The notes: generated from the letters alone by a model not told the origin. 64,000 bases of DNA from Labilithrix sp. (GCA_019637175.1 JAHBWD010000010.1:62715-126714), one strand, 5' to 3'. Shown: positions 29,471 through 42,481, counted from the first letter of the stretch. Translations and numbers: made by a program.

Positions 29471-29730
29471 ACCGACCGGCGAGAACGGCCCGAGCGAGTC
29501 CGTCGTGAGGGCTTCGAGGGTTTCACGGCTCGTCGAGCCGGCGGAGACGGCTCATCCAGCGGGCCGTGCTCCTGCTCCCACTCCCCCACGACCTCGAGCA
29601 GCCCCTGGGCACGAAGCTTCCTCCGTGCCGCATCCGCGAGCCACGACGAGGTTGGTTCCTTGCCGGCAGCCTTCTTGACCGCACGAGCGAGCTCCGCGTC
29701 GAGAGAGATCGCCAGCCGCGCAACCGTCAT
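29467..29730 (-). CDS. vapB: Ribbon-helix-helix-type antitoxin (VapB-like) with Lys/Arg/Pro-rich C-terminal tail
   Basis: 87 aa. N-terminal MTVARLAISLDAELARAVKKAA fits an RHH/CopG DNA-binding fold. Lies immediately upstream of, and overlapping, the PIN gene. Confidence 0.65.
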   Translation of the reverse strand: MTVARLAISLDAELARAVKKAAGKEPTSSWLADAARRKLRAQGLLEVVGEWEQEHGPLDEPSPPARRAVKPSKPSRRTRSGRSRRSV

Positions 29731-29830
29731 ACCGCGATATTACGATCGTGCCTCACTCGGTGCAAGTGCGGGTGGCGGTCTCGATCGCCACTGCTGCGCT
29801 TCGAGGTCCGATCTCGGCGAGACGAAGCTC

Positions 29831-30205
29831 TGACGAGAGAAGAGAGAGACGAGAGCTCGAAAGAGAGACGCTGAGGCGCCGAAGGTGCTCGCGGGCGTCG
29901 CTCCTCCTTCGTCGCCCTTCGGGTGCTCGCAAAGTTCGCGGACGAACTTTGCTGCGCAGTTGGGAGTCTCGCTTCCGATGCGCCGCGCCCTGCCGCTCTG
30001 CAGAGCTTCGGCGCGCGATCTCGGAACACGCGCGCGAAGGCGCAACGAGGTCGTCGGTCGGAAGAGAGGTCTCCCCTCGCGCAGGAAACTTGCGTCTTCG
30101 CAAGTTTCCGAGCACCGCAGAGCGGCCCGCGAGAGGAGGCGCTCGCAGCACGCCCTCACGCTCCGCGCCTCAGCGCCTCTCTTTCCCCTCTCTCTCGAGA
30201 GAGAG
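29831..30205. repeat. Highly structured about 375-bp intergenic element bounded by about 22-nt inverted repeats (MITE-like or structured ncRNA candidate) and containing perfect palindromes
   Basis: GA-rich tract 29831-29880 ends in GAAAGAGAGACGCTGAGGCGCC (29859-29880). Its reverse complement GCGCCTCAGCGCCTCTCTTTC lies at 30165-30185. Internal perfect hairpins are GCAAAGTTCG-CGGA-CGAACTTTGC (29929-29952) and GGAAACTTGCG-TCT-TCGCAAGTTTCC (30084-30109). The same about 25-nt motif recurs at 10057-10172. Confidence 0.4.
30188..30205 (-). terminator. Perfect 18-nt palindrome CTCTCTCTCGAGAGAGAG directly downstream of the regulator gene stop (hairpin terminator candidate)
   Basis: Lies 10 nt 3' of the stop of the minus-strand gene ending at 30215; 7-bp GC/AT-mixed stem with a 4-nt loop. 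No T-tract, as is usual in high-GC genomes. Confidence 0.35.
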
Positions 30206-30214
30206 CGAGCGCCC

Positions 30215-32710
30215 TCACGCGCGCACGAGCGGCGTGACGACGACGAGCAGGTAGCCCTCGGGGCGCGTCTCGAGCAGATCGCGGAGCCCCATCTTCCGAA
30301 GCGTCGCCACCGCGACGCGCACCCGATGCGACGCGGCGCTCGCGATCGCCTTCTCCCCGGGCCACGCCGCGGCGAACAGCGTCGCGGAGGAGACCGGCGC
30401 GTCGGGACGCTCGATCCGCTCGGCGGCGAGGCGATCGAGCAGGAGCGCGAGCGACTTGCGGCGCTCGAGGCCCACGCGCGACGCCGCAGGCGCGCGAAAC
30501 CAGCTCCCTCCCGCGCCGATCACGAGCGCGTCGGCCGGCGGCGCGGCCCCCGGGCTCGCCACCGCGACGACGCGCGCGAGGATGCGCGCGTAGAGCGATC
30601 CCGCGGGAGGCGACCACGACGCGGCGACGCCGTCGAGCGCCGCGAGGTGTACGCCGAACCACTGCGCATCGGCGCTCTCGAGGGGCGCGTGATCGCGCGC
30701 GTCCGCGAGCAGCGCGTAGGCTTCGGCCGCGGCGCCGCGCTCTCGCGCGAGGACGCCGAGGTGACCGCGCGCGTTCGCGGCCTCGCGCGCGAGGCCGTGA
30801 ACCGCGTAGACATCGCGCGCCGCCGCCAGCGACGACGCCGCGCCTTCGAGATCGCCCGAGGCGTGTCGAACGATCCCCGTCGCCTCGCGCGCCGTCGCTT
30901 CGCTCCTCGGATCGCGCTCGATCGACGACGCGTCGATCGCCGCGTCGAGGCTCGCCTTCGCCGCCGGCAGGTCGCCCGCGTCGGCGCACGCGCGCGCGTG
31001 CTCGACGAGGAGGCCCGCGCGGCGCGCGCGGTCTCGATCCGGCGCAAGAAGCGCCAGCGCCCGCTCGAGGAGCGCGCGCGCGTCGGTCACGACGTTCGAG
31101 ACCGACGCCTGGAGCGCGAGCGCGTCGGCCTGGCGCGCGCGCGCGCCGAGCGCGGCGAACGCCTGCGTAGCGCGCTCGAAGTGCTGGCGCGCCGCGTCGC
31201 GCTCGCCGCCCGCGAGCACGGTCTTTCCGAGCTCGAGGCCGGCGTCCGCCGCGACGAGGCCGTGGCCGAGCGCGCGCGCGAGCGACTCGGCGGCGAGCAG
31301 ATCCTTGAGCGCGCCGCGGAGATCGCCGCGCTCGCGGCGGAGCGCGCCGCGCAGGATCGTCGCGCGCGCCGTGAGCCCCGGATCGGCGCCCGAGTCGCGC
31401 GTGCGCTCGACGACGGGCGCGACGAGCGACGCGATCGACGCGAGCGGACCTCGCGCGAGCAAGACGCTGCTCAGCGCGACGAGGCCGCGCAGCGCCTGGT
31501 CCGCGCGCTGCGACGTGATCGATCCCCCGAGGACGCGCTCGACGACCGCGAGCACGTTCTCGCGTTCGTCGACGAGCCACGTGCGCGCGGAGGCGTCACG
31601 GTCCGCTTCGCGCGCGGCGCGCTCGGCCTCGGCGACGAACCACGCGGCGTGGCGCTCCTCGGCCTGCGCGATCGGCGCCGCGCGCTCGCGCACCACGTAG
31701 GCGCGCACCGCTCCGTAGAGATCGAAACGCGCTCCCTCGCGGCGACGCACGAGCGACTTGCCGGCGAGCGCGTCGAGCGCGTCGAGCGCCGACGAAGGCG
31801 GCGCGATCTCGACGACCGCGTCCACCGCGGCCGCCGTGAAGCCGCCGCGAAACACCGTGAGCTGCGCGAGCACGTCGCGCTCGTCGGGCGTCAGCGCGTC
31901 GAACGATCCGCGCACCGCGGCCTCGACCGACGCGTGTCGATCGGGACCGCCGCGCGCGGCGCGCGCGAGCGGCTCGGCGGAGCTTCGCAGGCGATGCAAG
32001 AGCGCTCGCGCGCCGAAGAGCGGAAGGCGCGCGCCCACGATCTCGAGCGCGAGGGGCACGCCCTCCATGAGCGCGACGATCTCCGACGCGTACGCGGCCT
32101 CGTCGTCACGGAGCGCAAACGCGTGCGCCCCCTTCTGCGCCGTCGCGACGAGGAGCTCGATCCCTTCGTCGAGCGCGCCGATCTCGTGCACCACCTCGCC
32201 CACGATCGCGAGACGCTCGCGCGACGTCACGATCATCTCCGCTTCGGGCGCAGCGTCGAGCCACGCGCCGGCGGTCGCGAGCGCGTGCTCGACGAGGCCG
32301 TCGAAGTTGTCGACGACGACGACGATCGCGCCGCGCGCCGCGAGCGCGGCGCCGACGCCCGCGACGCCGTCGTCGCTCGCGTCGAGGACGGCGTCGCAGG
32401 CCGCGGCCATCGCGTCGACGATCCCCGCGAGATCGCGCGCCGCCGAGAGATCGCAGAACAGCGCCGCCTCGCGCGCCCCTCGCGTGACGCGGCGCGAAGC
32501 ATGCTCCACCGCGAGCGCCGTCTTGCCGATGCCCCCCGGGCCGAGCAGCGTGACGAGGCGCGTGCCTTCGTCGAACCGCGCCGCGAGCGCGTCGAGATCA
32601 CGGCGCCGGCCCACGAAGGGGACCGCGCGCGGGAGGGTCGTCGAGGAAGACGGCGTCACGGGTTCAATCTGCCACAAGGATCTCTCGGTCGTCGCGCCGT
32701 CCGCTACCAT
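30215..32710 (-). CDS. NB-ARC/STAND ATPase - TPR-like - C-terminal OmpR/SARP-type winged-helix transcriptional regulator (AfsR-like with permuted domain order)
   Basis: 831 aa with Walker A LLGPGGIGKT and an NB-ARC-like region, then a long Ala/Leu/Arg helical-repeat region. The C-terminal approximately 70 aa SLALLLDRLA...LFAAAWPGE...SHRVRVAVATLRKMGL...EGYLL matches the Trans_reg_C consensus. Its start codon lies only about 11 nt from the divergent kinase start, so one of the two starts may be downstream. Confidence 0.85.
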   Translation of the reverse strand: MVADGATTERSLWQIEPVTPSSSTTLPRAVPFVGRRRDLDALAARFDEGTRLVTLLGPGGIGKTALAVEHASRRVTRGAREAALFCDLSAARDLAGIVDAMAAACDAVLDASDDGVAGVGAALAARGAIVVVVDNFDGLVEHALATAGAWLDAAPEAEMIVTSRERLAIVGEVVHEIGALDEGIELLVATAQKGAHAFALRDDEAAYASEIVALMEGVPLALEIVGARLPLFGARALLHRLRSSAEPLARAARGGPDRHASVEAAVRGSFDALTPDERDVLAQLTVFRGGFTAAAVDAVVEIAPPSSALDALDALAGKSLVRRREGARFDLYGAVRAYVVRERAAPIAQAEERHAAWFVAEAERAAREADRDASARTWLVDERENVLAVVERVLGGSITSQRADQALRGLVALSSVLLARGPLASIASLVAPVVERTRDSGADPGLTARATILRGALRRERGDLRGALKDLLAAESLARALGHGLVAADAGLELGKTVLAGGERDAARQHFERATQAFAALGARARQADALALQASVSNVVTDARALLERALALLAPDRDRARRAGLLVEHARACADAGDLPAAKASLDAAIDASSIERDPRSEATAREATGIVRHASGDLEGAASSLAAARDVYAVHGLAREAANARGHLGVLARERGAAAEAYALLADARDHAPLESADAQWFGVHLAALDGVAASWSPPAGSLYARILARVVAVASPGAAPPADALVIGAGGSWFRAPAASRVGLERRKSLALLLDRLAAERIERPDAPVSSATLFAAAWPGEKAIASAASHRVRVAVATLRKMGLRDLLETRPEGYLLVVVTPLVRA

Positions 32711-32721
32711 GGAGTCTCGCG

Positions 32722-34140
32722 ATGCGCGTGCGCCTCGACAAGTACGAGATCGCCCATCGGTCGGCGCAGACCCGGAGCCTCCTCGCGTTCGTCTTCGGCG
32801 GCATCGGCATCGTCGTCTTCGGCTTCCTCACGTTCCTCGGCGCGATCATGTTCGTGCTGCCCACGGGCGACGGCGGCGGCCTCTACGCGCAGCGAAGCGG
32901 GATCGTCGTCGGTCTCTTCATGGGCGCGATGCCGACGGTGATCAGCACGCTCGTCGTGGTTTGGGGCGCGAAGAAGCGCGCGCGGTTCCGCCGCCTCGGC
33001 GCGCTCGCCGGCCTCGCGCGCCAAACGCCGCTCTTGACCACGTCGCACGTCGCGCAGTCGCTCCGCCTATCGCCGATCGACGCCGACGGCCTCGTGCTCG
33101 AGGCGACCGCGCTCGGGCTCATCGACGACGGTCCCCACGCCACGCCCGTGACGGCCGGCGCGCTCGCGCCCACGGTCGCGAGCGACGGCGCGGGGCCATC
33201 GAATCCGCCGCCCGCAGGCGAGCGCGTCGGCCCCGGCACCGTGCTCGGCGGCGCCTATCGCATCGAGGAGCCGCTCGGCCGCGGCGGCATGGGCGAGGTC
33301 CACGCGGCGCGCCACCTGCGAACCGGGCGCCGATACGCGGTCAAGACGATCCTCCCCGGCGCGCGCGTCAACGACGCGCTCGTCCGCCGCTTCGAGCGTG
33401 AGGCGACCGCCGCGAGCGCGATCGGCCATCCCGGAATCGTTCAGGTCCACGACTTCAACGTCGCGCCCGGTGGGCTCTTCTACCTCGTGATGGATCTGCT
33501 CGAGGGCGAGACGCTCGCGACGCGGCTCGAGCGCACCTCCGCGCTGTCTTGGCCCGAAGCGCGGCGGATCGCGACCGAGCTCTGCGCCGCGCTCGGCGCC
33601 GCGCACGATCACGGCTTGCTCCATCGCGACATCAAGCCGGGCAACATCTTCCTCGCGAAGAGCGCGGCGAGGCCGTCACCTCCCGAGCGGGCCGTGCTCG
33701 TCGACTTCGGTCTCGTCAAGCCGATGGAGGAGACCTCGGCGGTCACGAGCACCGGGGCGGTGGTCGGCACGCCCATGTACATGTCGCCCGAGCAAGCGCG
33801 CGGCGAGACGCTCGACGTTCGCTCCGATCTCTACAGCCTCGCCGCCGTCATCTTCGAGATGATCACGGGCGCGCCGCCCTTCATCGATCGAACGATGGCG
33901 TCGGTGTACGCGCGTCTGCTCAAGGATCCGCCGCCTCGGGCTTCGCAGGTGTCGAGCCGCGCGATCCCTCCCGCGGTCGACGACGTGCTCGTCAAGGCGC
34001 TCGCGAAGGATCGCGCCGCGCGCTTCGGGCACGCGCGCCTCTTCGGAGAAGCGCTCGCGAGCATCGCGCCCGACGCCGCCGGCGCCGGGCCGCGCCCCGA
34101 AGAGGGCGCCGCGCCGACCACCGAGCGCATGGTGAATTGA
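32722..34140 (+). CDS. Hanks-type Ser/Thr protein kinase with N-terminal 2-TM membrane anchor and C-terminal kinase domain
   Basis: 472 aa. Kinase subdomains are present: GRGGMGEVHAA, AVK, HRDIKPGNIFL, DFGLVK, GTPMYMSPE. The N-terminal 100 aa is hydrophobic, and the linker contains an HTH-like segment (LLTTSHVAQSLRLSPIDADGLVLEATALGLI). Confidence 0.9.
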   Translation: MRVRLDKYEIAHRSAQTRSLLAFVFGGIGIVVFGFLTFLGAIMFVLPTGDGGGLYAQRSGIVVGLFMGAMPTVISTLVVVWGAKKRARFRRLGALAGLARQTPLLTTSHVAQSLRLSPIDADGLVLEATALGLIDDGPHATPVTAGALAPTVASDGAGPSNPPPAGERVGPGTVLGGAYRIEEPLGRGGMGEVHAARHLRTGRRYAVKTILPGARVNDALVRRFEREATAASAIGHPGIVQVHDFNVAPGGLFYLVMDLLEGETLATRLERTSALSWPEARRIATELCAALGAAHDHGLLHRDIKPGNIFLAKSAARPSPPERAVLVDFGLVKPMEETSAVTSTGAVVGTPMYMSPEQARGETLDVRSDLYSLAAVIFEMITGAPPFIDRTMASVYARLLKDPPPRASQVSSRAIPPAVDDVLVKALAKDRAARFGHARLFGEALASIAPDAAGAGPRPEEGAAPTTERMVN

Positions 34141-34160
34141 TCGCGTGATACGCTCGGCGC

Positions 34161-35672
34161 GTGCCGTCCGAGAGCACACGCCTTCCGACCGCGCCGGGGC
34201 CCGAGCCGTATCGCGTGCTCGGCGCGCTCCCCCAGCTCCTCCGCTTCGGGCGCGATCCGATCAGCGTCGCGGGCAAGCTCTTCGAGCGCTACGGACCGCT
34301 CGCGTCGATCGTGCGCGCGCCCGCGCGGATCATGAGCCCTGGCGGCCGCGCGGTCGTCCTCGCCAACGGCCCCGAGCTCAATCGCGAGATCCTCACCGAG
34401 CACAATCGGTACCGGATGTTCGCGCTGCCCGGCACCTTCTATCCGGAGGATCACGAGCTCTCGAACGGATCGAAGGTGCCGTTCCGCGCGAGGCCCGAGC
34501 GCCTTCGCCCGATCCGCCGAACGCTGACGGGGCTCTTCCACGTCAACGGCGACGAGCACCGGCGCCATCGCCGCTTGCTCCAGCCCGCGTTCCACAAGAC
34601 GCGCATCGACGCTTATCGCGACGACATGGTCACGCTCACCGAGAAGATGCTCGACGAGTGGCACCACGGGCAGCTCCGCGACGTCCACGCCGACATGACC
34701 GAGCTCACGCTCCGCATCGCGACCAAGACGCTCTTCGGCGAAGACGCCGGTGAGCGCGGCGTCGCGCTCGCGCGCATGATGCAGCAGTGGCTCGTCACGA
34801 TGTTCTCTCCCGGGATGCTCCTACGCCTCGATCTGAAGCGGCTCCCCTACGCGCGCTGGCTCGATCTCACGCGCGCGATCGACGAAGAGACCGTGGCGAT
34901 CCTCCGCGACAAGCAGGCCCGCATCGCAGACGCGAAGCACGTGGGCGCCGACATGCTCTCGATGCTCGTCGCCGCGCGCGACGAAGACGGCAGCGCGCTC
35001 GACGACGACGAGCTCGTCGGCCACACCGGCGTGATCTTCGCCGCGGGCCACGAGACGAGCACGAACGCGCTGGCGTGGACGCTCTTCTTGCTCGCGGAGC
35101 ATCCGGGCGCGGCCAACGATCTCGTCGACGAGCTCGAGGGCCTGCTCAAGGGCGACGCGCCGACCATCGAGCAGCTCGGCAAGCTCCCGCTCCTCGACGG
35201 CGTCGTGAAGGAGAGCATGCGGCTCCTGCCGCCCGTGCCGCTTCATCCGCGCGTGGTGGGCGAAGACACCGAGCTCGGCGGCCACTTCCTTCCCGCCAAT
35301 ACGGAGCTGTTCCTCAGCATCTTCCACATGCACCACGATCCGGCGATCTTCGACGAGCCGGGGCGCTTTCTCCCTGCGCGATGGTCGCGTATCAAGCCGT
35401 CGATCTTCGAGTACAACCCGTTCAGCGCCGGCCCGCGCATGTGCATCGGGGCGGCGTTCGCGACGATGGAGATCAAGATCGCGCTGGCGATGCTCCTCCA
35501 GCGGTTCCGCGTCGAGCTGCCGCCGCGCGCGCGCGTCGACCGACGCGTCGCGATCACGATGGCGCCGCGAGACGGCCTGCCCATGCGGATCCGACCGCCC
35601 GATCGCGCGTGGCGCTCGGGGCCGCGCGGATCGCGCGGCAACGTCAGGGAGCTCTTGGAGCTGCCCTCGTGA
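34161..35672 (+). CDS. Cytochrome P450 monooxygenase
   Basis: 503 aa with I-helix AAGHETS, EXXR, and haem loop FSAGPRMCIGAAFA. Starts 20 nt after the kinase stop. Confidence 0.9.
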   Translation: MPSESTRLPTAPGPEPYRVLGALPQLLRFGRDPISVAGKLFERYGPLASIVRAPARIMSPGGRAVVLANGPELNREILTEHNRYRMFALPGTFYPEDHELSNGSKVPFRARPERLRPIRRTLTGLFHVNGDEHRRHRRLLQPAFHKTRIDAYRDDMVTLTEKMLDEWHHGQLRDVHADMTELTLRIATKTLFGEDAGERGVALARMMQQWLVTMFSPGMLLRLDLKRLPYARWLDLTRAIDEETVAILRDKQARIADAKHVGADMLSMLVAARDEDGSALDDDELVGHTGVIFAAGHETSTNALAWTLFLLAEHPGAANDLVDELEGLLKGDAPTIEQLGKLPLLDGVVKESMRLLPPVPLHPRVVGEDTELGGHFLPANTELFLSIFHMHHDPAIFDEPGRFLPARWSRIKPSIFEYNPFSAGPRMCIGAAFATMEIKIALAMLLQRFRVELPPRARVDRRVAITMAPRDGLPMRIRPPDRAWRSGPRGSRGNVRELLELPS

Positions 35673-37696
35673 TCCACGGCCTCTTCGGCCGTCCCTTCGT
35701 CGATCTCGAGCGCTTCATCGATCTCTCGGCGCTCGAGGAGATCCACGAGGAGATCTGCCTGGGCCTCTCGCAGGTGCCCGTCGACTACACGGGCGGGAGC
35801 CATCGCGCCATGTGCATCATGCCGGCCTCGCGCACCGGCGAGGCGCACGCCGACTACGGCGAGATCATCCCGCGCCTCGGCGCCGCGGAGTACGCGACGT
35901 TTCGCTCGCTCGCCGACGAGCCCGCGTCGTTTCCCGCGAGCCCCGACGGCGCGACCGTCGGCGAAGAGCGCGATCACCCGCTCTCGCGACGGCAGATGCT
36001 GTGGCTCGAGTATCGCTTCGGCGTCTACTTCCCGTGGAAGATCCACCTCGAGATGATCCCGAACCGCTACTGGGACGAGAAGAGCTCCGCCGAAGGCAAA
36101 GACTTCACGCGCGTCGCGAAGACCTTCTTCCCGAAGACGGTGGCCTTCGCCCGATCGCTGCCTTTCGAGCACGTCGGGCGGTGCAACGTGATGGGCCTCT
36201 CCGGCAACGATCACGGCTCCGTCCATCGCGACGGAGCCCCCGAGGAGAAGCCCGACGCCGATCACTTCGTCACGATCTGCCCCGCGGGCAACAAGCGCCT
36301 CTATCTCTGGGACGAAGAGAAGAAGGAGAAGCTGCCCGTGAGCTCCCGCGCGTACTGGTTCAACGACTCCGACTATCACGGCGTCGACGCCGACCCGTTC
36401 TTCCGCGACTCGATCCGCGTCGACGGCGTGTGCCATCCGGAGCATCCTCGTCGCCGGCGCCGTCATCGCCGGGTTCGGCGCGATGCTCACCATGTGCGTC
36501 AAGGCCGCCGTCAGCCCCTCCGAGCCGGACTTCATCGATCAGCGACGGCGATCGCTCGACATGCAGAAGGAGTTCGGCTGGGCCTTCGGCGCCGTCGGCG
36601 AGCCGCTCGTCTTCGACGGCGTCTCCACGAAGCCCTTCGAGCCCGGCGCGCTCCAGTCGCTCGGCGTCGATCTCGCTCCGGCGCGCGGCGATCTCCTCCC
36701 CTACTTCCAGCGCGCGCTCTTCGAGTCGCCGAGCGCGGCGCCCACGAACCTCGCGTCGCTCGATCCTCCGAGGCCGTCGGGTTCCAGCTCCTCTCGACGG
36801 TCGTGCAGCCGATCGCCACGCCCGCGATGGCGATCCACTTCGAGCGAGGCACGGCCCTCGCCTCGCTCTTTCTGAGCCTCGTCGAGGGCGGCGGCAAGCC
36901 GACCGACGCGAAGACGGCGATCATCGTCGATCTCCCGGGCCCGGACGCCGTGGCGTTCGCGGCCGGCGCCGCGTCGATCTTCGATCCCGTCTTCCTCTTC
37001 GACAACTGGCCTCACCCGCGCGGCGTCGTGCGCGCGCACGAGACGCTGTCGGCGGCGGCCTACTATCAACCTCTCTTCGCGAAGGCGAGAGCGACGCGAG
37101 GTCCGGCGGCCGACAGAGCGCCTCCGATGTTCGTCCTCGATCGCCGGCGCCTCTTCGCCTACACCGACGACGCGACGCAGTTCGACAATCGCTACGTCGC
37201 CAAGCTGCCGTCGCCCTCGGTGGCGATGCGAGCGCTCGGCGTCAACAACGTCCTCTACGTCGTGCCGCTGAAGGTCGACACCGCGGTCGAGATGGACGAC
37301 GTCAACGACGATCTCCTCCTCTACAAGGGCTCGGGGATGGACGTGCGGAGCCTCTCGACGGACATGTTCCAGCACGACGCCACCGCGAGCGCGAGCGTCC
37401 TCTACTACGGCGGGAGCCCGCTCTCGCATCACGCGTTCTTCGCCGACTACCCTTGGGCGAAGCCCGCGCGCGCGGCGTCGCTCCGCCCGCACAACCCCGG
37501 CACGAGCTTCACGCCACGGCCGCGCTCGACGGCGTACTCGACCGGCACGCCGACGGGCAGCGTCGCCCGAGCGCGGCCCGCCGACTTCGGCACCGTGCCC
37601 GTCGCCGTCGCCGTCGCCAGCGGCGTGGTGCTCGGCGCGCGCCACTCGCGGAGCGGCTCGTGGAATCGGACCTCGGGCGGGAGCAGCAGCAGCTGA
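35669..37696 (+). CDS. Aspartyl/asparaginyl beta-hydroxylase-like (2OG/Fe(II) cupin oxygenase-like) N-terminal domain gene with interrupted reading frame (coding signal switches frame twice); possible pseudogene or sequence errors
   Basis: GTG at 35669 overlaps the P450 stop (GTGA). Frame 2 codes convincingly to about 36445 (...HRDG...AYWFNDSDYHGVDAD...RDSIRVD, AspH-like). About 36430-36770 only frame 0 is protein-like (...ILVAGAVIAGFGAMLTMCV...). Frame 2 is protein-like again from about 36780 to the stop at 37696, with no stop codon in frame 2 throughout. Confidence 0.45.
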   Translation: MIHGLFGRPFVDLERFIDLSALEEIHEEICLGLSQVPVDYTGGSHRAMCIMPASRTGEAHADYGEIIPRLGAAEYATFRSLADEPASFPASPDGATVGEERDHPLSRRQMLWLEYRFGVYFPWKIHLEMIPNRYWDEKSSAEGKDFTRVAKTFFPKTVAFARSLPFEHVGRCNVMGLSGNDHGSVHRDGAPEEKPDADHFVTICPAGNKRLYLWDEEKKEKLPVSSRAYWFNDSDYHGVDADPFFRDSIRVDGVCHPEHPRRRRRHRRVRRDAHHVRQGRRQPLRAGLHRSATAIARHAEGVRLGLRRRRRAARLRRRLHEALRARRAPVARRRSRSGARRSPPLLPARALRVAERGAHEPRVARSSEAVGFQLLSTVVQPIATPAMAIHFERGTALASLFLSLVEGGGKPTDAKTAIIVDLPGPDAVAFAAGAASIFDPVFLFDNWPHPRGVVRAHETLSAAAYYQPLFAKARATRGPAADRAPPMFVLDRRRLFAYTDDATQFDNRYVAKLPSPSVAMRALGVNNVLYVVPLKVDTAVEMDDVNDDLLLYKGSGMDVRSLSTDMFQHDATASASVLYYGGSPLSHHAFFADYPWAKPARAASLRPHNPGTSFTPRPRSTAYSTGTPTGSVARARPADFGTVPVAVAVASGVVLGARHSRSGSWNRTSGGSSSS

Positions 37697-38265
37697 TGTC
37701 GCGCTCGATCCTCGCCGTCGAGATCTGCGCGAAGCTCGAGCCCGGCGGCCGCCTCCACACGGCGCTTCATCGCGCCGTGACGAGCCACCCGGCGAGCGCG
37801 TCGCTCCAGCAGAAGTGGCTCTTCTATCGCCATGTCATCGGCGAGCTCCTCGTCGCCGCGCCGCTCTTCGAGCGAGGCTGCTGGGATTACTTCGACGACG
37901 ACACGCGCGCGCGCGCCGACTACGAGCAGTGGGTCGGCGGCATGGTCACCGAAGAGGGCGCGCGGCCGAGCCCGTCGGGCAACGATCCGTACCGAGGCGA
38001 GACGCGATACCTGACGTTCACGATGGCCTTTCTCTTGCTCCAGAATTCGCCGTCCGATCTCGCCGTCCGTCGGCTCTGCGACATCCCCGAGCCGGCGCTG
38101 TGGCAGCGAGCGACGTTCCACCGCATCCTCTCGGGGATGGGCGTGCTCAACTTCGCGAGCGTGCAGAGCGACGTCGCCTACCTGATCCCGCGCGACGTGG
38201 GCTGGGGCCTCACGCGCGAGGATCTCGCGCAGCCGAAGTTCGACTACCTCCGCCCGTTGGTGTAG
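37696..38265 (+). CDS. Hypothetical protein (189 aa), translationally coupled to the preceding gene
   Basis: ATG at 37696 overlaps the upstream stop (TGATG). Balanced composition with Trp/Tyr/Phe and genome-typical codon usage. The 817-aa track ORF in this frame is junk upstream of this ATG. Confidence 0.55.
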   Translation: MSRSILAVEICAKLEPGGRLHTALHRAVTSHPASASLQQKWLFYRHVIGELLVAAPLFERGCWDYFDDDTRARADYEQWVGGMVTEEGARPSPSGNDPYRGETRYLTFTMAFLLLQNSPSDLAVRRLCDIPEPALWQRATFHRILSGMGVLNFASVQSDVAYLIPRDVGWGLTREDLAQPKFDYLRPLV

Positions 38266-38358: not shown

Positions 38359-39528
38359 ATGTCGCTTCGCAGACGCGTCGCCACCGCTTCGATCCTCGGC
38401 GCCGGTATGATCGTCGTCGCGAGCTGCGGCTCGCGGACGGGCCTCTTCGGGGTCGACGCGCTGCCCGACGGCGCGGCGATCGACGGCTCGGCGCGCGATC
38501 GCAACGATCCCGACGCGCCGGTGAAGTGCACGCCCGGCCGGTTCACGTTCGATCTCGCCATCGCCCAGCTCATGTTCGTCGTCGATCGATCGGGCTCGAT
38601 GTCGTTCGCCCTCGACGGCACGCAGCCGGGCGGCTTCGGCCTCCCGCCCGGCGTCCTGTCGCGCTGGGAGGTCCTGCGCGACGGCCTCGCGAAGAGCATC
38701 ACGCCGTACGACACGCAGATCGCGATGGGCGCGAAGTTCTACCCCGAAGAAGGCGGCAGCGACCCCAACGATCCCGACGACGGTTGCCGCACCGATCTCG
38801 GCGTCGCCATCGCCCCCGCGCCGGGCAACGCGCGCGCGATCCTCGACGTCTTCACGACGAGCACGCCGATCGGCGGAACGCCGACGTCCGAGGCGATCCG
38901 CCTGGCGGCGCAGTACATCACCGGCACCCGCGGCGTCGCCCGCACGATGGTCGTCGCGACCGACGGCGCGCCGAACTGCAACGGCGCGCTCAACCCCGAC
39001 ACGTGCACCTGCACCGCGCGGCGCCCCAACGGATCGCCGACGTGCCCTTCGGATCAGAGCGGCCACAACTGCCTCGACGATCTCCGCACGATCGGCGTCA
39101 TCCGAAACATCTTCGACAACCAGAAGATCCCGGTCTACGTGATCGGCATCGGCGGCTCGGAGCAGCCCGCCTTCATCAAGGCGCTCGACGACATGGCCGT
39201 CGCCGGCGGCCGCGCGAAGCCCGCGAGCCCCAAGTTCTACAACGTGCAGACCGCGACGGAGATGGACGACGCGCTGGCGAGCATCAGCAGCAGCGTCGCC
39301 GGGTGCACCTACCTCACGCCGTCGGCGCCGCTCGATCCCAACGCCATCAGCGTGGAGATCGACGGCGTCGCGGTCCCTCGCGATCCCACGCGGCAGAACG
39401 GGTGGGACTGGGTCGATCAGGCCTACGGTACGCTCGCGTTCTTCGGCTCCGCGTGCGACGCGGCGTCGAAGGGCGTCACGGGCGTCACGCCGAAGATCGG
39501 CGGCGTCGTTCGGTGCGAGAGCCCCTGA
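38359..39528 (+). CDS. Secreted von Willebrand factor A (VWA)-domain lipoprotein, Cys-rich; paralog 1
   Basis: Lipoprotein signal peptide with lipobox VVASCGS. MIDAS motif DRSGSM...T...D. About 14 Cys including CNGALNPDTCTCTARRPNGSPTC. 389 aa. Confidence 0.85.
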   Translation: MSLRRRVATASILGAGMIVVASCGSRTGLFGVDALPDGAAIDGSARDRNDPDAPVKCTPGRFTFDLAIAQLMFVVDRSGSMSFALDGTQPGGFGLPPGVLSRWEVLRDGLAKSITPYDTQIAMGAKFYPEEGGSDPNDPDDGCRTDLGVAIAPAPGNARAILDVFTTSTPIGGTPTSEAIRLAAQYITGTRGVARTMVVATDGAPNCNGALNPDTCTCTARRPNGSPTCPSDQSGHNCLDDLRTIGVIRNIFDNQKIPVYVIGIGGSEQPAFIKALDDMAVAGGRAKPASPKFYNVQTATEMDDALASISSSVAGCTYLTPSAPLDPNAISVEIDGVAVPRDPTRQNGWDWVDQAYGTLAFFGSACDAASKGVTGVTPKIGGVVRCESP

Positions 39529-39529
39529 C

Positions 39530-40705
39530 ATGCTGCGGTCGTTCGGGCTCCTTCGTCGCTTCGCGTGGGCCTGCGTGCTCGGCGGCGGCGTCGTCGCGAT
39601 CGCGAGCTGCGGATCGCGCACCGGCCTCTTCGGGGGCGACGCGATCGGGGCGCTCCCCGACGGCGGGCGCCTCGACGGCACCCTCGACGCCGGCCTCGAC
39701 GGCGCGGTGCCGTGCACGCCTGGGCGCTTCACGTTCGACCTCGCCGTCGCCCAGCTCATGTTCGTGATCGATCGATCCGGCTCGATGGCCTTCTCCCTCG
39801 GCGGCACGCAGCCCGACGGGGGCGCGCTCCCGCCCGGGGTCGAGTCGCGATGGCAGGTCTTGCGCGACGGCCTCTTCACCGCGATCACGCCGTTCGCGAA
39901 CACGCTCGCGATGGGCGCGAAGTTCTATCCCGAGGAGCACGACCCGGGGCCCAACCCCCCGTCGGTCGCCTGCCGCACCGACGTGGGCGTCGCGATCGCG
40001 CCCGCGCTCGGCAACGCGCAGTCGATCATCGACGTCTTCGACACGACGAGCCCCAACGGAGGCACGCCGACGGCGGAGGCCATCCGCCTCGGCGCGCAGT
40101 ACCTCACGGGCACGCGCGGCGTCGCCCGCACCATCGTCGTCGCGACCGACGGCGCTCCGAACTGCAACGAGCAGCTCGATCGAACGCGCTGCACGTGCAC
40201 CTCGACGACGGGCAACTGCGCGACGTCCCCCGGCGGCGAGTACAACTGCCTCGACGATCTCCGATCGATCAGCATCATCAAGGACATCTTCGAGAACCAG
40301 AAGATCCCGGTCTACGTCATCGGCATCGGAGGAACCGAGCGCCCCGCTTTCCTCAAGGTCCTCGACGACATGGCGCTCGCCGGCGGCCGCGCGCGCGCGA
40401 CCACGCCGCGGCACTACAACGTCCAGACCTCCGCAGAGATGAAGGAAGCGCTCGCGACCATCAGCGGGAGCGTCGCGCAGTGCACGTACCTCACGCCGTC
40501 GAGCCCCGTCGATCCCAACGCGATCACCGTCGAGATCGACGGTCGATCGATCCCGCGCGATCCCACGCGCACGAACGGCTGGGACTGGGTCGATCAGGCG
40601 TACGGCACGCTCGCCTTCTTCGGGCCCGCGTGCGACGCGGCCTCCGGCGCGAGCCCGCTCGGCGTTCCTCAGATCTCGGGCGTGGTTCGCTGCGAGAATC
40701 GCTGA
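39530..40705 (+). CDS. Secreted VWA-domain lipoprotein, Cys-rich; paralog 2 (tandem duplicate)
   Basis: 391 aa, about 60% identical to the upstream gene over the full length, with the same lipobox (IASCGS), MIDAS DRSGSM and Cys pattern. Starts 2 nt after the paralog 1 stop. Confidence 0.85.
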   Translation: MLRSFGLLRRFAWACVLGGGVVAIASCGSRTGLFGGDAIGALPDGGRLDGTLDAGLDGAVPCTPGRFTFDLAVAQLMFVIDRSGSMAFSLGGTQPDGGALPPGVESRWQVLRDGLFTAITPFANTLAMGAKFYPEEHDPGPNPPSVACRTDVGVAIAPALGNAQSIIDVFDTTSPNGGTPTAEAIRLGAQYLTGTRGVARTIVVATDGAPNCNEQLDRTRCTCTSTTGNCATSPGGEYNCLDDLRSISIIKDIFENQKIPVYVIGIGGTERPAFLKVLDDMALAGGRARATTPRHYNVQTSAEMKEALATISGSVAQCTYLTPSSPVDPNAITVEIDGRSIPRDPTRTNGWDWVDQAYGTLAFFGPACDAASGASPLGVPQISGVVRCENR

Positions 40706-40711
40706 TCGGCG

Positions 40712-42481
40712 ATGGAAGCGATCGCGCAGGCGCTCTTCGAAGCCGAAGGAACGCGCTCGCGCAAGACGAAGGTCGCCGCGCTCGCGCGCGCGCTCGACGG
40801 GACGAGCCGGCGTGACCCGGCCCGCCTGCCGTTCGTGGCGCGCTTCCTCACGGGCGTCCTCTTGCCGACCGACGACGAGCGCATCCTCGGCGCCGGCGGC
40901 GCGCTCGTCTTCGAGGCCGCCGCCATGGTCACGGGCATGTCGTACGAAGAGCTCGGCGCGCGGGCGCGCAAGAGCGGCGACCTCGGCACCGCGATCGGAG
41001 AGGCGATCGCGGCCGCCGGCAAGACGGTGCCCGGCCTTCGCCTCGAAGAGGTCGAAGAGGTCGCCCAGGCGCTCGCGGGCACCGGACAGCGCGGCGAGAA
41101 GCTCCGCGCGCTGCGCTCGGCCTTCGAGCGGTGCACGCCGCTGGAAGGTCGATACCTCGCGCGCGCCATCCTCGGCGAGATGCGCGTGGGCGCGAAGGAA
41201 GGCATCGTGCTCGACGCGATCGCCGCGGCGTTCGGCCGTGACGCCACCGAGGTCCGCCGCGCGGCGGGCCTCGTCACCGACGTCGGCGAGCTCACGCGCC
41301 TCGCCGCCGACGATCGCTTGGGCGAGGCGCGCATCGTCCTCGGGCGGCCGCTCGGCTTCATGCTCGCGACGCCGATCGAGAGCGCGCGCGGCGCGGATCT
41401 CTCGGCGCCGCACCTCGTCGAAGACAAGATCGACGGCGTCCGCGCGCAGGCACACGTCTCGCCGTCGAGCGTTCACCTCTTCGCGCGCGGCACCGGCGCG
41501 GTCACCGCGGCGTTCCCCGACGTCACGGGCCCGCTCGCCGACGCCGCGCGCGCGGGCGCGCTGCCGCCCGCGATCCTCGACGGCGAGATCGTCGTCGTCG
41601 CGCCCGACGGGCGGCCGCGCCCCTTCTCCGCGATCCAACCGCGCCTGAAGAAGACGGGACCCGACGACGCCCTCCTCCGCGATCACCCGGTGCACTACGT
41701 CGTCTACGATCTGCTCCTCGAAGGCGACGAATCGCTCCTCGCGCTCCCCTTCTCCGAGCGACGCGCGCGCCTCGCGAAGTGGGCCGAAGCCGCGCCGCCG
41801 CCGGTGCGCGTCAACGACGCGCGCGCGCTCTCGGGCAAAGACGCGATCGACGCCGAGTTCGACGCCGCGCGCGCGCGCGGCTTCGAGGGCCTCGTGCTCA
41901 AGCGCCTCGACGCCCCCTACGCCGCGGGCGTCCGCGGGTTCGCGTGGCTCAAGGTCAAGAAGGCCCTCGGCACGCTCGACGTGGTGGTCGTCGCCGCGGA
42001 GCGCGGTCACGGAAGACGCGCGGGCGTCCTCAGCGACTACACCTTCTCCGTTTGGAGCGAAGGTGAGCTCCTCACCGTCGGCAAGGCGTACAGCGGCCTC
42101 ACCGACGAGGAGATCAAGACGATGACCGCGCGCCTCGAGACGATCGCGATCGGCGAAGAGCGCCACGGGTACCTCGCGGTCCACCCGCAGATCGTCCTCG
42201 AGGTCGCCTTCGACGGTCTTCAGAGGTCTGACCGGCACTCGAGCGGCTTCGCGCTGAGGTTCCCGCGCATCGCGCGCATCCGCGACGACAAACGGCCCGA
42301 GGACGCCGACACCCTCGAGGCCGTGCGGGCGCTCTGGGACGCGCAGCTCCAGAGCGGCCACCGCGAGGATCTGACGGCGAAGGACCGCAAGAAGACGGCC
42401 AAGAAGGGGGGCCGCCGCTCCGGCCGGCGCCCGGACGTTCGACAGAAGTCCAAGCAGCTGAAGCTTTTCGAGGACGACTGA
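40712..42481 (+). CDS. ATP-dependent DNA ligase (Lig I/LigB-like, with N-terminal DNA-binding domain) carrying a C-terminal basic tail ending in QLKLFEDD
   Basis: 589 aa. Adenylation motif I EDKIDGVRAQ (KxDG), motifs III-VI recognisable (…LDGEIVV…, …EGLVLKRLD…YAAG…R, …WLKVKK…) plus an OB domain. The C-terminal 40 aa is Lys/Arg-rich and ends in a QLxLF motif. Confidence 0.9.
   Translation: MEAIAQALFEAEGTRSRKTKVAALARALDGTSRRDPARLPFVARFLTGVLLPTDDERILGAGGALVFEAAAMVTGMSYEELGARARKSGDLGTAIGEAIAAAGKTVPGLRLEEVEEVAQALAGTGQRGEKLRALRSAFERCTPLEGRYLARAILGEMRVGAKEGIVLDAIAAAFGRDATEVRRAAGLVTDVGELTRLAADDRLGEARIVLGRPLGFMLATPIESARGADLSAPHLVEDKIDGVRAQAHVSPSSVHLFARGTGAVTAAFPDVTGPLADAARAGALPPAILDGEIVVVAPDGRPRPFSAIQPRLKKTGPDDALLRDHPVHYVVYDLLLEGDESLLALPFSERRARLAKWAEAAPPPVRVNDARALSGKDAIDAEFDAARARGFEGLVLKRLDAPYAAGVRGFAWLKVKKALGTLDVVVVAAERGHGRRAGVLSDYTFSVWSEGELLTVGKAYSGLTDEEIKTMTARLETIAIGEERHGYLAVHPQIVLEVAFDGLQRSDRHSSGFALRFPRIARIRDDKRPEDADTLEAVRALWDAQLQSGHREDLTAKDRKKTAKKGGRRSGRRPDVRQKSKQLKLFEDD

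Follow-up and report, generated by a model that had tools for sequence, protein, structure and literature searches.

In a metagenome-assembled genome (MAG) of Labilithrix sp., the gene of a predicted transcriptional regulator lies head-to-head with the gene of a membrane-bound Ser/Thr kinase, and the kinase gene is in turn followed by a run of genes that starts with a cytochrome P450. The question raised by this locus is whether the regulator and the kinase command the P450 genes or are only their neighbours. The locus occupies positions 30215-38265 of the stretch of DNA that was analysed (GCA_019637175.1 JAHBWD010000010.1:62715-126714; 64,000 nucleotides (nt), about 70% G+C), referred to here as the window. 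With a probability of about 0.62, we read it as two modules that abut in this lineage: a signalling pair, and a triad of genes (X, Y and Z) with a clade-specific P450. The phase of the G+C content at third codon positions (GC3) was used to tell true genes from spurious open reading frames (ORFs), and the following features were obtained.

30215-32710, minus strand: regulator KF819_10485, of STAND-TPR-wHTH architecture (wHTH, winged helix-turn-helix), recognised by GC3 phase; 831 amino acids (aa) from the ATG at 32710; 1309 homologues
32660-32721, no strand: short divergent control region, with TACCAT at 32705-32710 and CTGCCACA at 32669-32676
32722-34140, plus strand: Hanks Ser/Thr kinase MBX3187435.1, with Pkinase at residues 179-438 and two transmembrane (TM) segments; exact NCBI match
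34161-35672, plus strand: cytochrome P450 (p450, E=3e-76), starting 20 nt past the kinase stop
35669-36442, plus strand: X, a protein with a predicted Fe(II)/2-oxoglutarate (2OG) oxygenase fold; homologues of about 270 aa; stop codon lost here
36432-36764, plus strand: N-terminal part of Y, with a TM helix and the start of a probably extracytoplasmic domain; in another frame than the annotated ORF
36770-37696, plus strand: C-terminal part of Y, where the frame of X is regained after a 1-nt shift near 36775 (tblastn)
37696-38265, plus strand: Z, a 189-aa ORF located behind Y in all 45 loci with room

The kinase, a 675-aa ORF covering X and Y, and the 189-aa ORF are exact matches to NCBI proteins, all from one 190-kb contig.

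The first-pass annotation had described a phosphorylation-gated switch driving an oxidative cassette. In such a dedicated switch the divergent promoter would be fired by the regulator, kinase and P450-X-Y-Z would share a transcript, and the production of an oxidatively tailored metabolite would be gated by phosphorylation. In its favour, only 20 nt separate the kinase stop from the P450 start, as had been noted, on the same strand and with no terminator-like site between them, and the same gene order is found in L004, L005 and L006. The overlapping stop and start codons that had been described further down were also found, the P450 stop being overlapped by the next ORF (GTGA) and that ORF by the last one (TGATG). 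However, the first-pass annotation had also named in advance the conservation of the plus-strand genes as a neighbourhood as a check on its proposal, and here the comparison went against it. Among the nine pair loci that were compared (the window, L001, L002/L007, L004, L005, L006, L008, L009 and L010), P450-X-Y-Z comes after the kinase in four, namely the window, L004, L005 and L006, and no cassette follows the kinase in the other five. L009 is a precise cassette-less version, in which the kinase is directly followed by the VWA and ligase genes and exactly the cassette is missing. No cassette was found nearby in L002/L007, L008 and L010, and in L001 it is placed 6 kb off, on the opposite side of the regulator, after a TetR gene and an FA_hydroxylase gene. 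The reverse situation is given by L012, L016 and L021, which have the order P450-X-Y-Z-VWA-ligase and whose 8-10 kb of upstream sequence contain neither kinase nor regulator. In L005 a 253-aa gene without counterpart in the window, and 1.1 kb in all, separate the kinase from the P450.

The cassette survey comprised 80 metagenome loci retrieved with X, the counts being limited to loci with room. Y is located directly after X in 45 of 46 of these loci, and a P450 directly upstream of X in 10 of 44, all of these with an X of 67% identity or more. An orthologous kinase or regulator was found upstream of X in one of 27 loci, so the X-Y-Z core exists in dozens of loci without an orthologous pair. 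Moreover, no core biosynthetic gene or precursor peptide lies nearby. Because L009 lacks the cassette, L012, L016 and L021 lack the pair, the cassette of L001 is relocated and the metagenome count is 1/27, the gene orders indicate that pair and cassette are independent modules inserted in a conserved backbone and adjacent in some genomes only. We therefore consider a dedicated switch unlikely; the adjacency of the P450 cassette in this locus is no evidence of regulation, and in the two-module reading the cassette would not be under specific control of the signalling pair.

The backbone on the ligase side of the window consists of the following genes.

38359-39528 and 39530-40705, plus strand: two tandem CglB-like VWA lipoproteins (gliding_CglB of NCBIfam at 77 and 86 bits, against a cut-off of 200)
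40712-42481, plus strand: ATP-dependent DNA ligase, with DNA_ligase_A_M, _N and _C and dnl1 at 249.5 bits, over its cut-off; part of the syntenic backbone

Each of the tandem VWA paralogues has a lipobox (...ASCGS) and 11-12 Cys. L004-L006, L009 and L012 have just one VWA gene, which lies ahead of the DNA ligase and after Z (or after the kinase).

If the pair does not belong to the cassette, it has to be asked whether regulator and kinase belong to each other. Pairing was evaluated in 12 loci, these being the nine listed above plus L091, L092 and L093. The orthologous kinase is divergent from the regulator in 12/12, as far as 33% regulator identity, and the head-to-head kinase of the first-pass annotation is thus a conserved partner. 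The two are not always direct neighbours, as some loci have one to four small genes in the space between; those of L001 and L004 have no counterpart in the window. In addition, two fusion proteins carry both partners on one chain: P0332 has the order kinase-STAND-TPR-wHTH, with the kinase N-terminal, and P0082 the order STAND-TPR-kinase-wHTH, with the kinase ahead of the wHTH. Given the divergent pairing in all 12 loci down to 33% identity and the two fusion architectures, it is well supported by sequence comparison that kinase and regulator form a functional pair.

A different explanation for the adjacency is inherited synteny, in which case the regulator alone would be a ligand-gated STAND factor and the kinase would have other substrates. 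The pair loci belong for the most part to a single family-level lineage in which synteny is shared over long distances, and myxobacterial genomes contain very many Hanks kinases. The pairing nevertheless holds at 33-36% regulator identity with different flanking genes (L010, L091, L092), the intergenic distance is very short in several loci, and the fusions link kinase and STAND-wHTH protein in two distinct ways. We find this explanation improbable.

The kinase itself is of the Hanks type, since Pkinase scores 142.1 bits against a cut-off of 31.7 (E=2.7e-41). Near its N-terminus the hydropathy profile has two hydrophobic stretches, residues 17-50 and 59-83, which are joined by a short loop; a linker and the canonical Pkinase domain come next. 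The two TM segments described before were therefore found, while the helix-turn-helix that had been suggested in the linker had no Pfam support. With the AfsK model the kinase reached 76.6 bits, far from the 1300-bit cut-off, and by this measure it does not have AfsK equivalog status.

The regulator gene has a strong coding phase across the whole minus-strand ORF 30215-32710, and its product is 100% identical to P0001, annotated as hypothetical protein KF819_10485. Three regions can be distinguished in it.

32021-32620, minus strand (residues ~31-230): P-loop STAND NTPase module; AAA_16, NB-ARC and AAA_22 just under their gathering cut-offs
30806-31018, minus strand (residues 565-635): best TPR-like stretch within a long helical-repeat region; TPR_12 E=0.0093, TPR_16 E=0.017
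30215-30547, minus strand (residues 722-831): C-terminal winged helix of predicted OmpR/PhoB type, by AlphaFold2 (AF2) and Foldseek; sub-threshold in Pfam

For the first of these, AAA_16 gave 30.6 bits against a cut-off of 32.6 (E=5.9e-7), NB-ARC 21.7 bits against 23.5 (E=1.4e-4), and AAA_22 a sub-threshold match with E=1.6e-4; the NACHT and nSTAND matches, also sub-threshold, agree with the STAND class. The Walker A motif, GPGGIGKT, is invariant in 50 homologues (G57, G60, G62 and K63 of alignment A1). This P-loop, the concordant sub-threshold matches and the TPRs seen in homologues together identify a STAND NTPase. In the repeat region TPR_12 reached 16.6 bits against a cut-off of 30.1; in the homologue P0002 it is found with E=4.4e-11. 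HTH_77 is annotated in homologues, including relatives without the C-terminal wHTH, and for this reason the HTH_77 match is presumably the internal winged helix of the STAND module.

The last 110 residues of the regulator were modelled by AF2 with a mean predicted local distance difference test (pLDDT) of 96.6 and a secondary structure of E-E-H-H-H-E-E-E, so that the N-terminal beta-sheet, the three helices and the C-terminal beta-hairpin wing of the OmpR/PhoB fold are all present in the model. The top 50 Foldseek matches in the PDB are without exception DNA-binding domains of ToxR, CadC, CovR, OmpR, PhoP, AfsR or EmbR (probability ~1, TM-scores of 0.44-0.67), and include AfsR (8hvr, 8k60) and EmbR (2ff4, 2fez). 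A PDB sequence-profile search had the VanR DNA-binding domain as its best match, at E=0.097 but with recognition helix and wing aligned in register. The identity of the C-terminus as a winged helix lies in its fold, and is settled by the structure prediction. The domain order of the first-pass annotation (STAND NTPase, helical repeats, C-terminal OmpR-type wHTH) was borne out by this model; the match to the Trans_reg_C consensus that went with it holds for the fold and fails by Pfam score (12.5 bits against 26.2). The chain stops about 10 residues past the wing. No FHA and no LuxR/GerE domain was found in the regulator with Pfam.

A profile search with the wHTH domain over 1.84 billion cluster representatives (clusters at 50% identity) found the domain in 5,583 clusters, of which 5,046 reach E<=1e-10. 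Every one of the 150 matches listed among these clusters has the wHTH at the extreme C-terminus, and these proteins are mostly of 780-1,200 aa, the shorter ones being probably fragments. Among the best 120 full-length relatives, 109 have the wHTH, which is C-terminal in 109/109. Wherever a source is named it belongs to Myxococcota (Labilithrix, Polyangiaceae, Polyangium, Minicystis and Kofleriaceae). A profile scan of genomes with a 7-sequence alignment gave only four genome loci. Trans_reg_C is detected at E<=1 in just 8 of 32 homologous C-termini, with 4.4e-4 as the best E-value. Since Pfam overlooks the C-terminal domain, proteins of this family are annotated just as "predicted ATPase" or "hypothetical protein". 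In the literature, a search of limited reach found no description of a family with STAND and a C-terminal OmpR domain, and only Streptomyces SARP work surfaced. The family appears to be an uncharacterised variant of the known STAND transcription factors.

The combination of STAND and TPR also resembles bacterial NLR-like sensors, and the kinase matches the PD-T4-6 kinase models of PADLOC (E=8.7e-86), which could suggest an anti-phage or conflict sensor of Avs/NLR type accompanied by a defence kinase. However, the PD-T4-6 match spans the generic kinase domain only and the regulator has no PADLOC match. Its sole effector domain is the DNA-binding wHTH and not a nuclease, a protease or another toxic domain. 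The locus, moreover, is surrounded by housekeeping-type genes in stable synteny and not by a defence island. A role in defence is accordingly very hard to credit.

Two further observations concern the other flank of the regulator. A GIDE-domain gene is found directly downstream of it in L002, L005 and L091, and not in the window. In the window, the ~660 nt downstream of the regulator (29550-30215) have a lower G+C content and no clear coding phase; a single terminator-like hairpin is present there on the minus strand (29880-29867), and Rfam gave no match. No RNA family was found in an Rfam scan of the whole window, and terminator-like sites are no commoner in the window scan than expected by chance.

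Between the two divergent genes the space is small, although how small depends on the regulator start. The gap of about 11 nt between start codons that had been reported is correct only if the ATG at 32710 is used. The NCBI start, a GTG at 32659 (814 aa), is a better fit to the N-termini of the homologues and leaves 62 nt; from this alignment it is the more likely start. TACCAT, at 32705-32710, is a -10-like TAnnnT placed 11 nt ahead of the kinase ATG. A TAnnnT is kept upstream of the kinase in 9/9 loci, its distance to the ATG being 8-13 nt in eight of them and 18 nt in L009, and it is also present in L001, where the gene upstream of the kinase is not the regulator. We infer that it could be a -10 element giving a near-leaderless kinase mRNA. 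No site was found by a consensus sigma-70 scan of the control region, and a sigma-54 reading of a conserved TGGCA-like element was ruled out because the GG-GC spacing is wrong. A second element conserved at the DNA level, CTGCCACA at 32669-32676, is common to L002 and L005 despite the differing regulator N-termini that overlap it.

Turning to the cassette, the best NCBIfam model for the P450 is ApyO (NF050147), which matches over its full length with 316 bits against a cut-off of 525; the runner-up has 186 bits. No MNIO, rSAM, RRE or precursor-peptide genes were found near the P450 in Pfam and NCBIfam scans of the neighbourhood. A sterol role was considered and is unsupported, CYP51 being just a mid-rank PDB match.

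The region 35669-37696 had been described as a single AspH-like gene, and is present in NCBI as one hypothetical protein of 675 aa (KF819_10500) that forms a singleton cluster. GC3 phase and tblastn with homologues divide it into three pieces, so that the plus-strand run is in fact kinase, P450, X, Y and Z, with Y damaged. In more than 850 homologues X is free-standing, of ~270 aa, and Y begins at an overlapping ATGA. In the window, 36432-36764 aligns by tblastn with residues 42-159 of the Y of L001 at 60% identity, the GC3 phase switching there, and the frame-0 translation of this N-terminal part of Y reads IRSILVAGAVIAGFGAMLTMC...; 36770-37669 aligns with residues 162-482 at 60.6% identity. 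A DNA alignment places the damage within 36380-36800 and shows that ~165 nt are deleted at a CG(G/C)CGTG microhomology, with the loss of the X stop and of the first ~41 codons of Y, which include the invariant G24, W27 and W28 of alignment A6. As a result the TM-bearing part of Y is out of frame with X, and a 1-nt difference near 36775 returns the remaining Y to the frame of X. The out-of-frame segment retains its 60% identity to Y and its own GC3 phase, which points either to a lesion of recent date or to a misassembly. As nine neighbouring genes can be aligned over their full length with no frameshift, errors are not a general feature of this assembly.

X was modelled with a pLDDT of 87.8 as a double-stranded beta-helix, and its HxD...H...RxS motif supplies the HxD/E...H triad and the 2OG-binding Arg. 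It had no match in Pfam (including Asp_Arg_Hydrox), NCBIfam or PADLOC, and only chance-level ones among PDB sequences. The label "AspH-like" can then be kept for the predicted fold of X, without placing X in that family. Y begins with a TM helix and ends in a hydrophobic tail, with a probably extracytoplasmic domain of ~370 residues between them, and in Z the residues G61-C62-W63 of alignment A5 are invariant. For Y and Z no match was obtained in Pfam, NCBIfam or PADLOC, and PDB sequence matches were at chance level, so that neither has a recognisable relative of known function.

More distant X-Y-Z loci have other company. In L030 and L066 (~7.7-9.9 kb), genes for a DUF350 membrane protein and a glutathionylspermidine-synthase-like ATP-grasp protein are divergent from X, and L032 and L038 resemble this arrangement by ORF size only. 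A second X paralogue (40-47% identity) is often located 2-8 kb upstream.

On the whole, we propose the following for the two modules. In the pair, by analogy with MalT and AfsR, the NTPase and TPR part would hold the DNA-binding domain inactive until a nucleotide or ligand is bound, upon which the regulator could oligomerise and occupy repeated DNA sites. This switch is most likely tuned by the kinase through phosphorylation of the regulator. The extracytoplasmic part of the kinase is no more than a short loop, so that its cue probably comes from the membrane or the cytoplasm, and its gene appears to be transcribed from the -10-like element 8-13 nt before the ATG, which would give the near-leaderless mRNA. 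In the cassette, the P450 would have been joined upstream of the widely conserved X-Y-Z in Labilithrix-like genomes, and P450-X-Y-Z most likely modifies by oxidation a substrate that is a peptide, a protein or derived from an amino acid.

Several points weigh against this proposal. In the window, L004 and L006 the kinase and the P450 share a strand and are separated by only 20-60 nt, a space with no predicted terminator; given this gap, the two are possibly co-transcribed in this clade, in what would be a local regulatory capture of the cassette. The CoA-transferase, VWA, ligase and S46 peptidase genes are likewise conserved around the locus, so that among close relatives the adjacency of kinase and regulator is partly shared synteny. 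Phosphotransfer from kinase to regulator is suggested by adjacency and by the fusions, and the direction and effect of the phosphorylation by what is described for AfsK/AfsR. The C-terminal 121 residues of the regulator miss the Trans_reg_C threshold (12.5-12.8 bits against 26.2, E=0.16), and its role as a DNA-binding transcription factor, with its DNA binding and its target promoters, is predicted from the model. Finally, a peptide or protein is the most likely substrate of the cassette judging from the nearest structural and hidden Markov model neighbours, all of which are sub-threshold.

Myxobacterial genomes hold hundreds of Hanks kinases along with many STAND/TPR proteins, and the connections of most of these have yet to be traced. 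With the regulator-kinase family, a specific link from Ser/Thr phosphorylation to transcription can be put to the test. We are tempted to go further and to suggest, as a tentative and rather doubtful extension, that the pair represents an undescribed phylum-wide class of one-step signalling in Myxococcota, with thousands of members in which Ser/Thr phosphorylation would gate an NLR-like transcription factor, and that X-Y-Z may be an undescribed and widespread system that hydroxylates proteins or peptides at the membrane. In the cassette, it is the conserved X-Y-Z triad and not the P450 that merits closer study.

Comparison with known systems places each of these elements. X aligns with PHD2, P4H, AspH and proline cis-4-hydroxylase over ~145-165 of its 258 residues, at 12-14% identity. 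AspH lacks the acidic ligand of the metal triad; X, in contrast, keeps HxD, and it is always accompanied by Y and Z. ApyO crosslinks two Tyr residues in the precursor peptide of aminopyruvatide, a ribosomally synthesised and post-translationally modified peptide, or RiPP (PMC11117315). It is the top curated model for the P450, which yet stays below the ApyO cut-off and has no RiPP context here.

In EmbR-PknH of M. tuberculosis, as in the window, a regulator with an OmpR-type wHTH is encoded beside a membrane Hanks kinase. EmbR is phosphorylated by this adjoining kinase, PknH. The wHTH of EmbR is N-terminal, however, and is followed by BTA and FHA domains with no STAND NTPase or TPR, whereas the regulator has no FHA match.

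AfsR and the large SARPs combine an OmpR-type winged helix, a STAND/NOD NTPase and TPRs on one chain, a set that the regulator appears to share, with NB-ARC and TPR_12 matches just short of or below their cut-offs. AfsR is phosphorylated by the nearby Hanks kinase AfsK, and ATP binding lifts its autoinhibition; its BTA domain contacts sigma region 4 and RNA polymerase, and phosphorylation in the AfsK/AfsR system modulates ATPase activity and oligomerisation and is not an on-switch (PMC10936776). AfsR is from Actinomycetota and the regulator from Myxococcota. The DNA-binding domain of AfsR is N-terminal and that of the regulator C-terminal (residues 722-831 of 831), and unlike AfsR, which has a BTA (BTAD) domain, the regulator has no BTAD match in Pfam at E<=1, and neither do three homologues. 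Its kinase also differs from AfsK, being integral with two TM segments, encoded immediately divergent and not an AfsK equivalog. The "AfsK/AfsR-like" label of the first-pass annotation is thus useful as an analogy and does not stand as membership.

MalT and the LAL proteins, the model case of activators whose oligomerisation is gated by inducer and ATP (PMC10936776), have the same order as the regulator, with an N-terminal STAND NTPase, a helical-repeat sensor and a C-terminal DNA-binding domain. In MalT/LAL this last domain is a LuxR/GerE HTH, whereas in the regulator it is an OmpR/PhoB winged helix with no GerE match, and MalT is not known to have a dedicated partner kinase. The regulator is therefore not a SARP; it has the MalT/LAL domain order with an OmpR-type output replacing the LuxR-type one, which means that an AfsR-like set of parts arose in a MalT-like order outside the actinomycetes.

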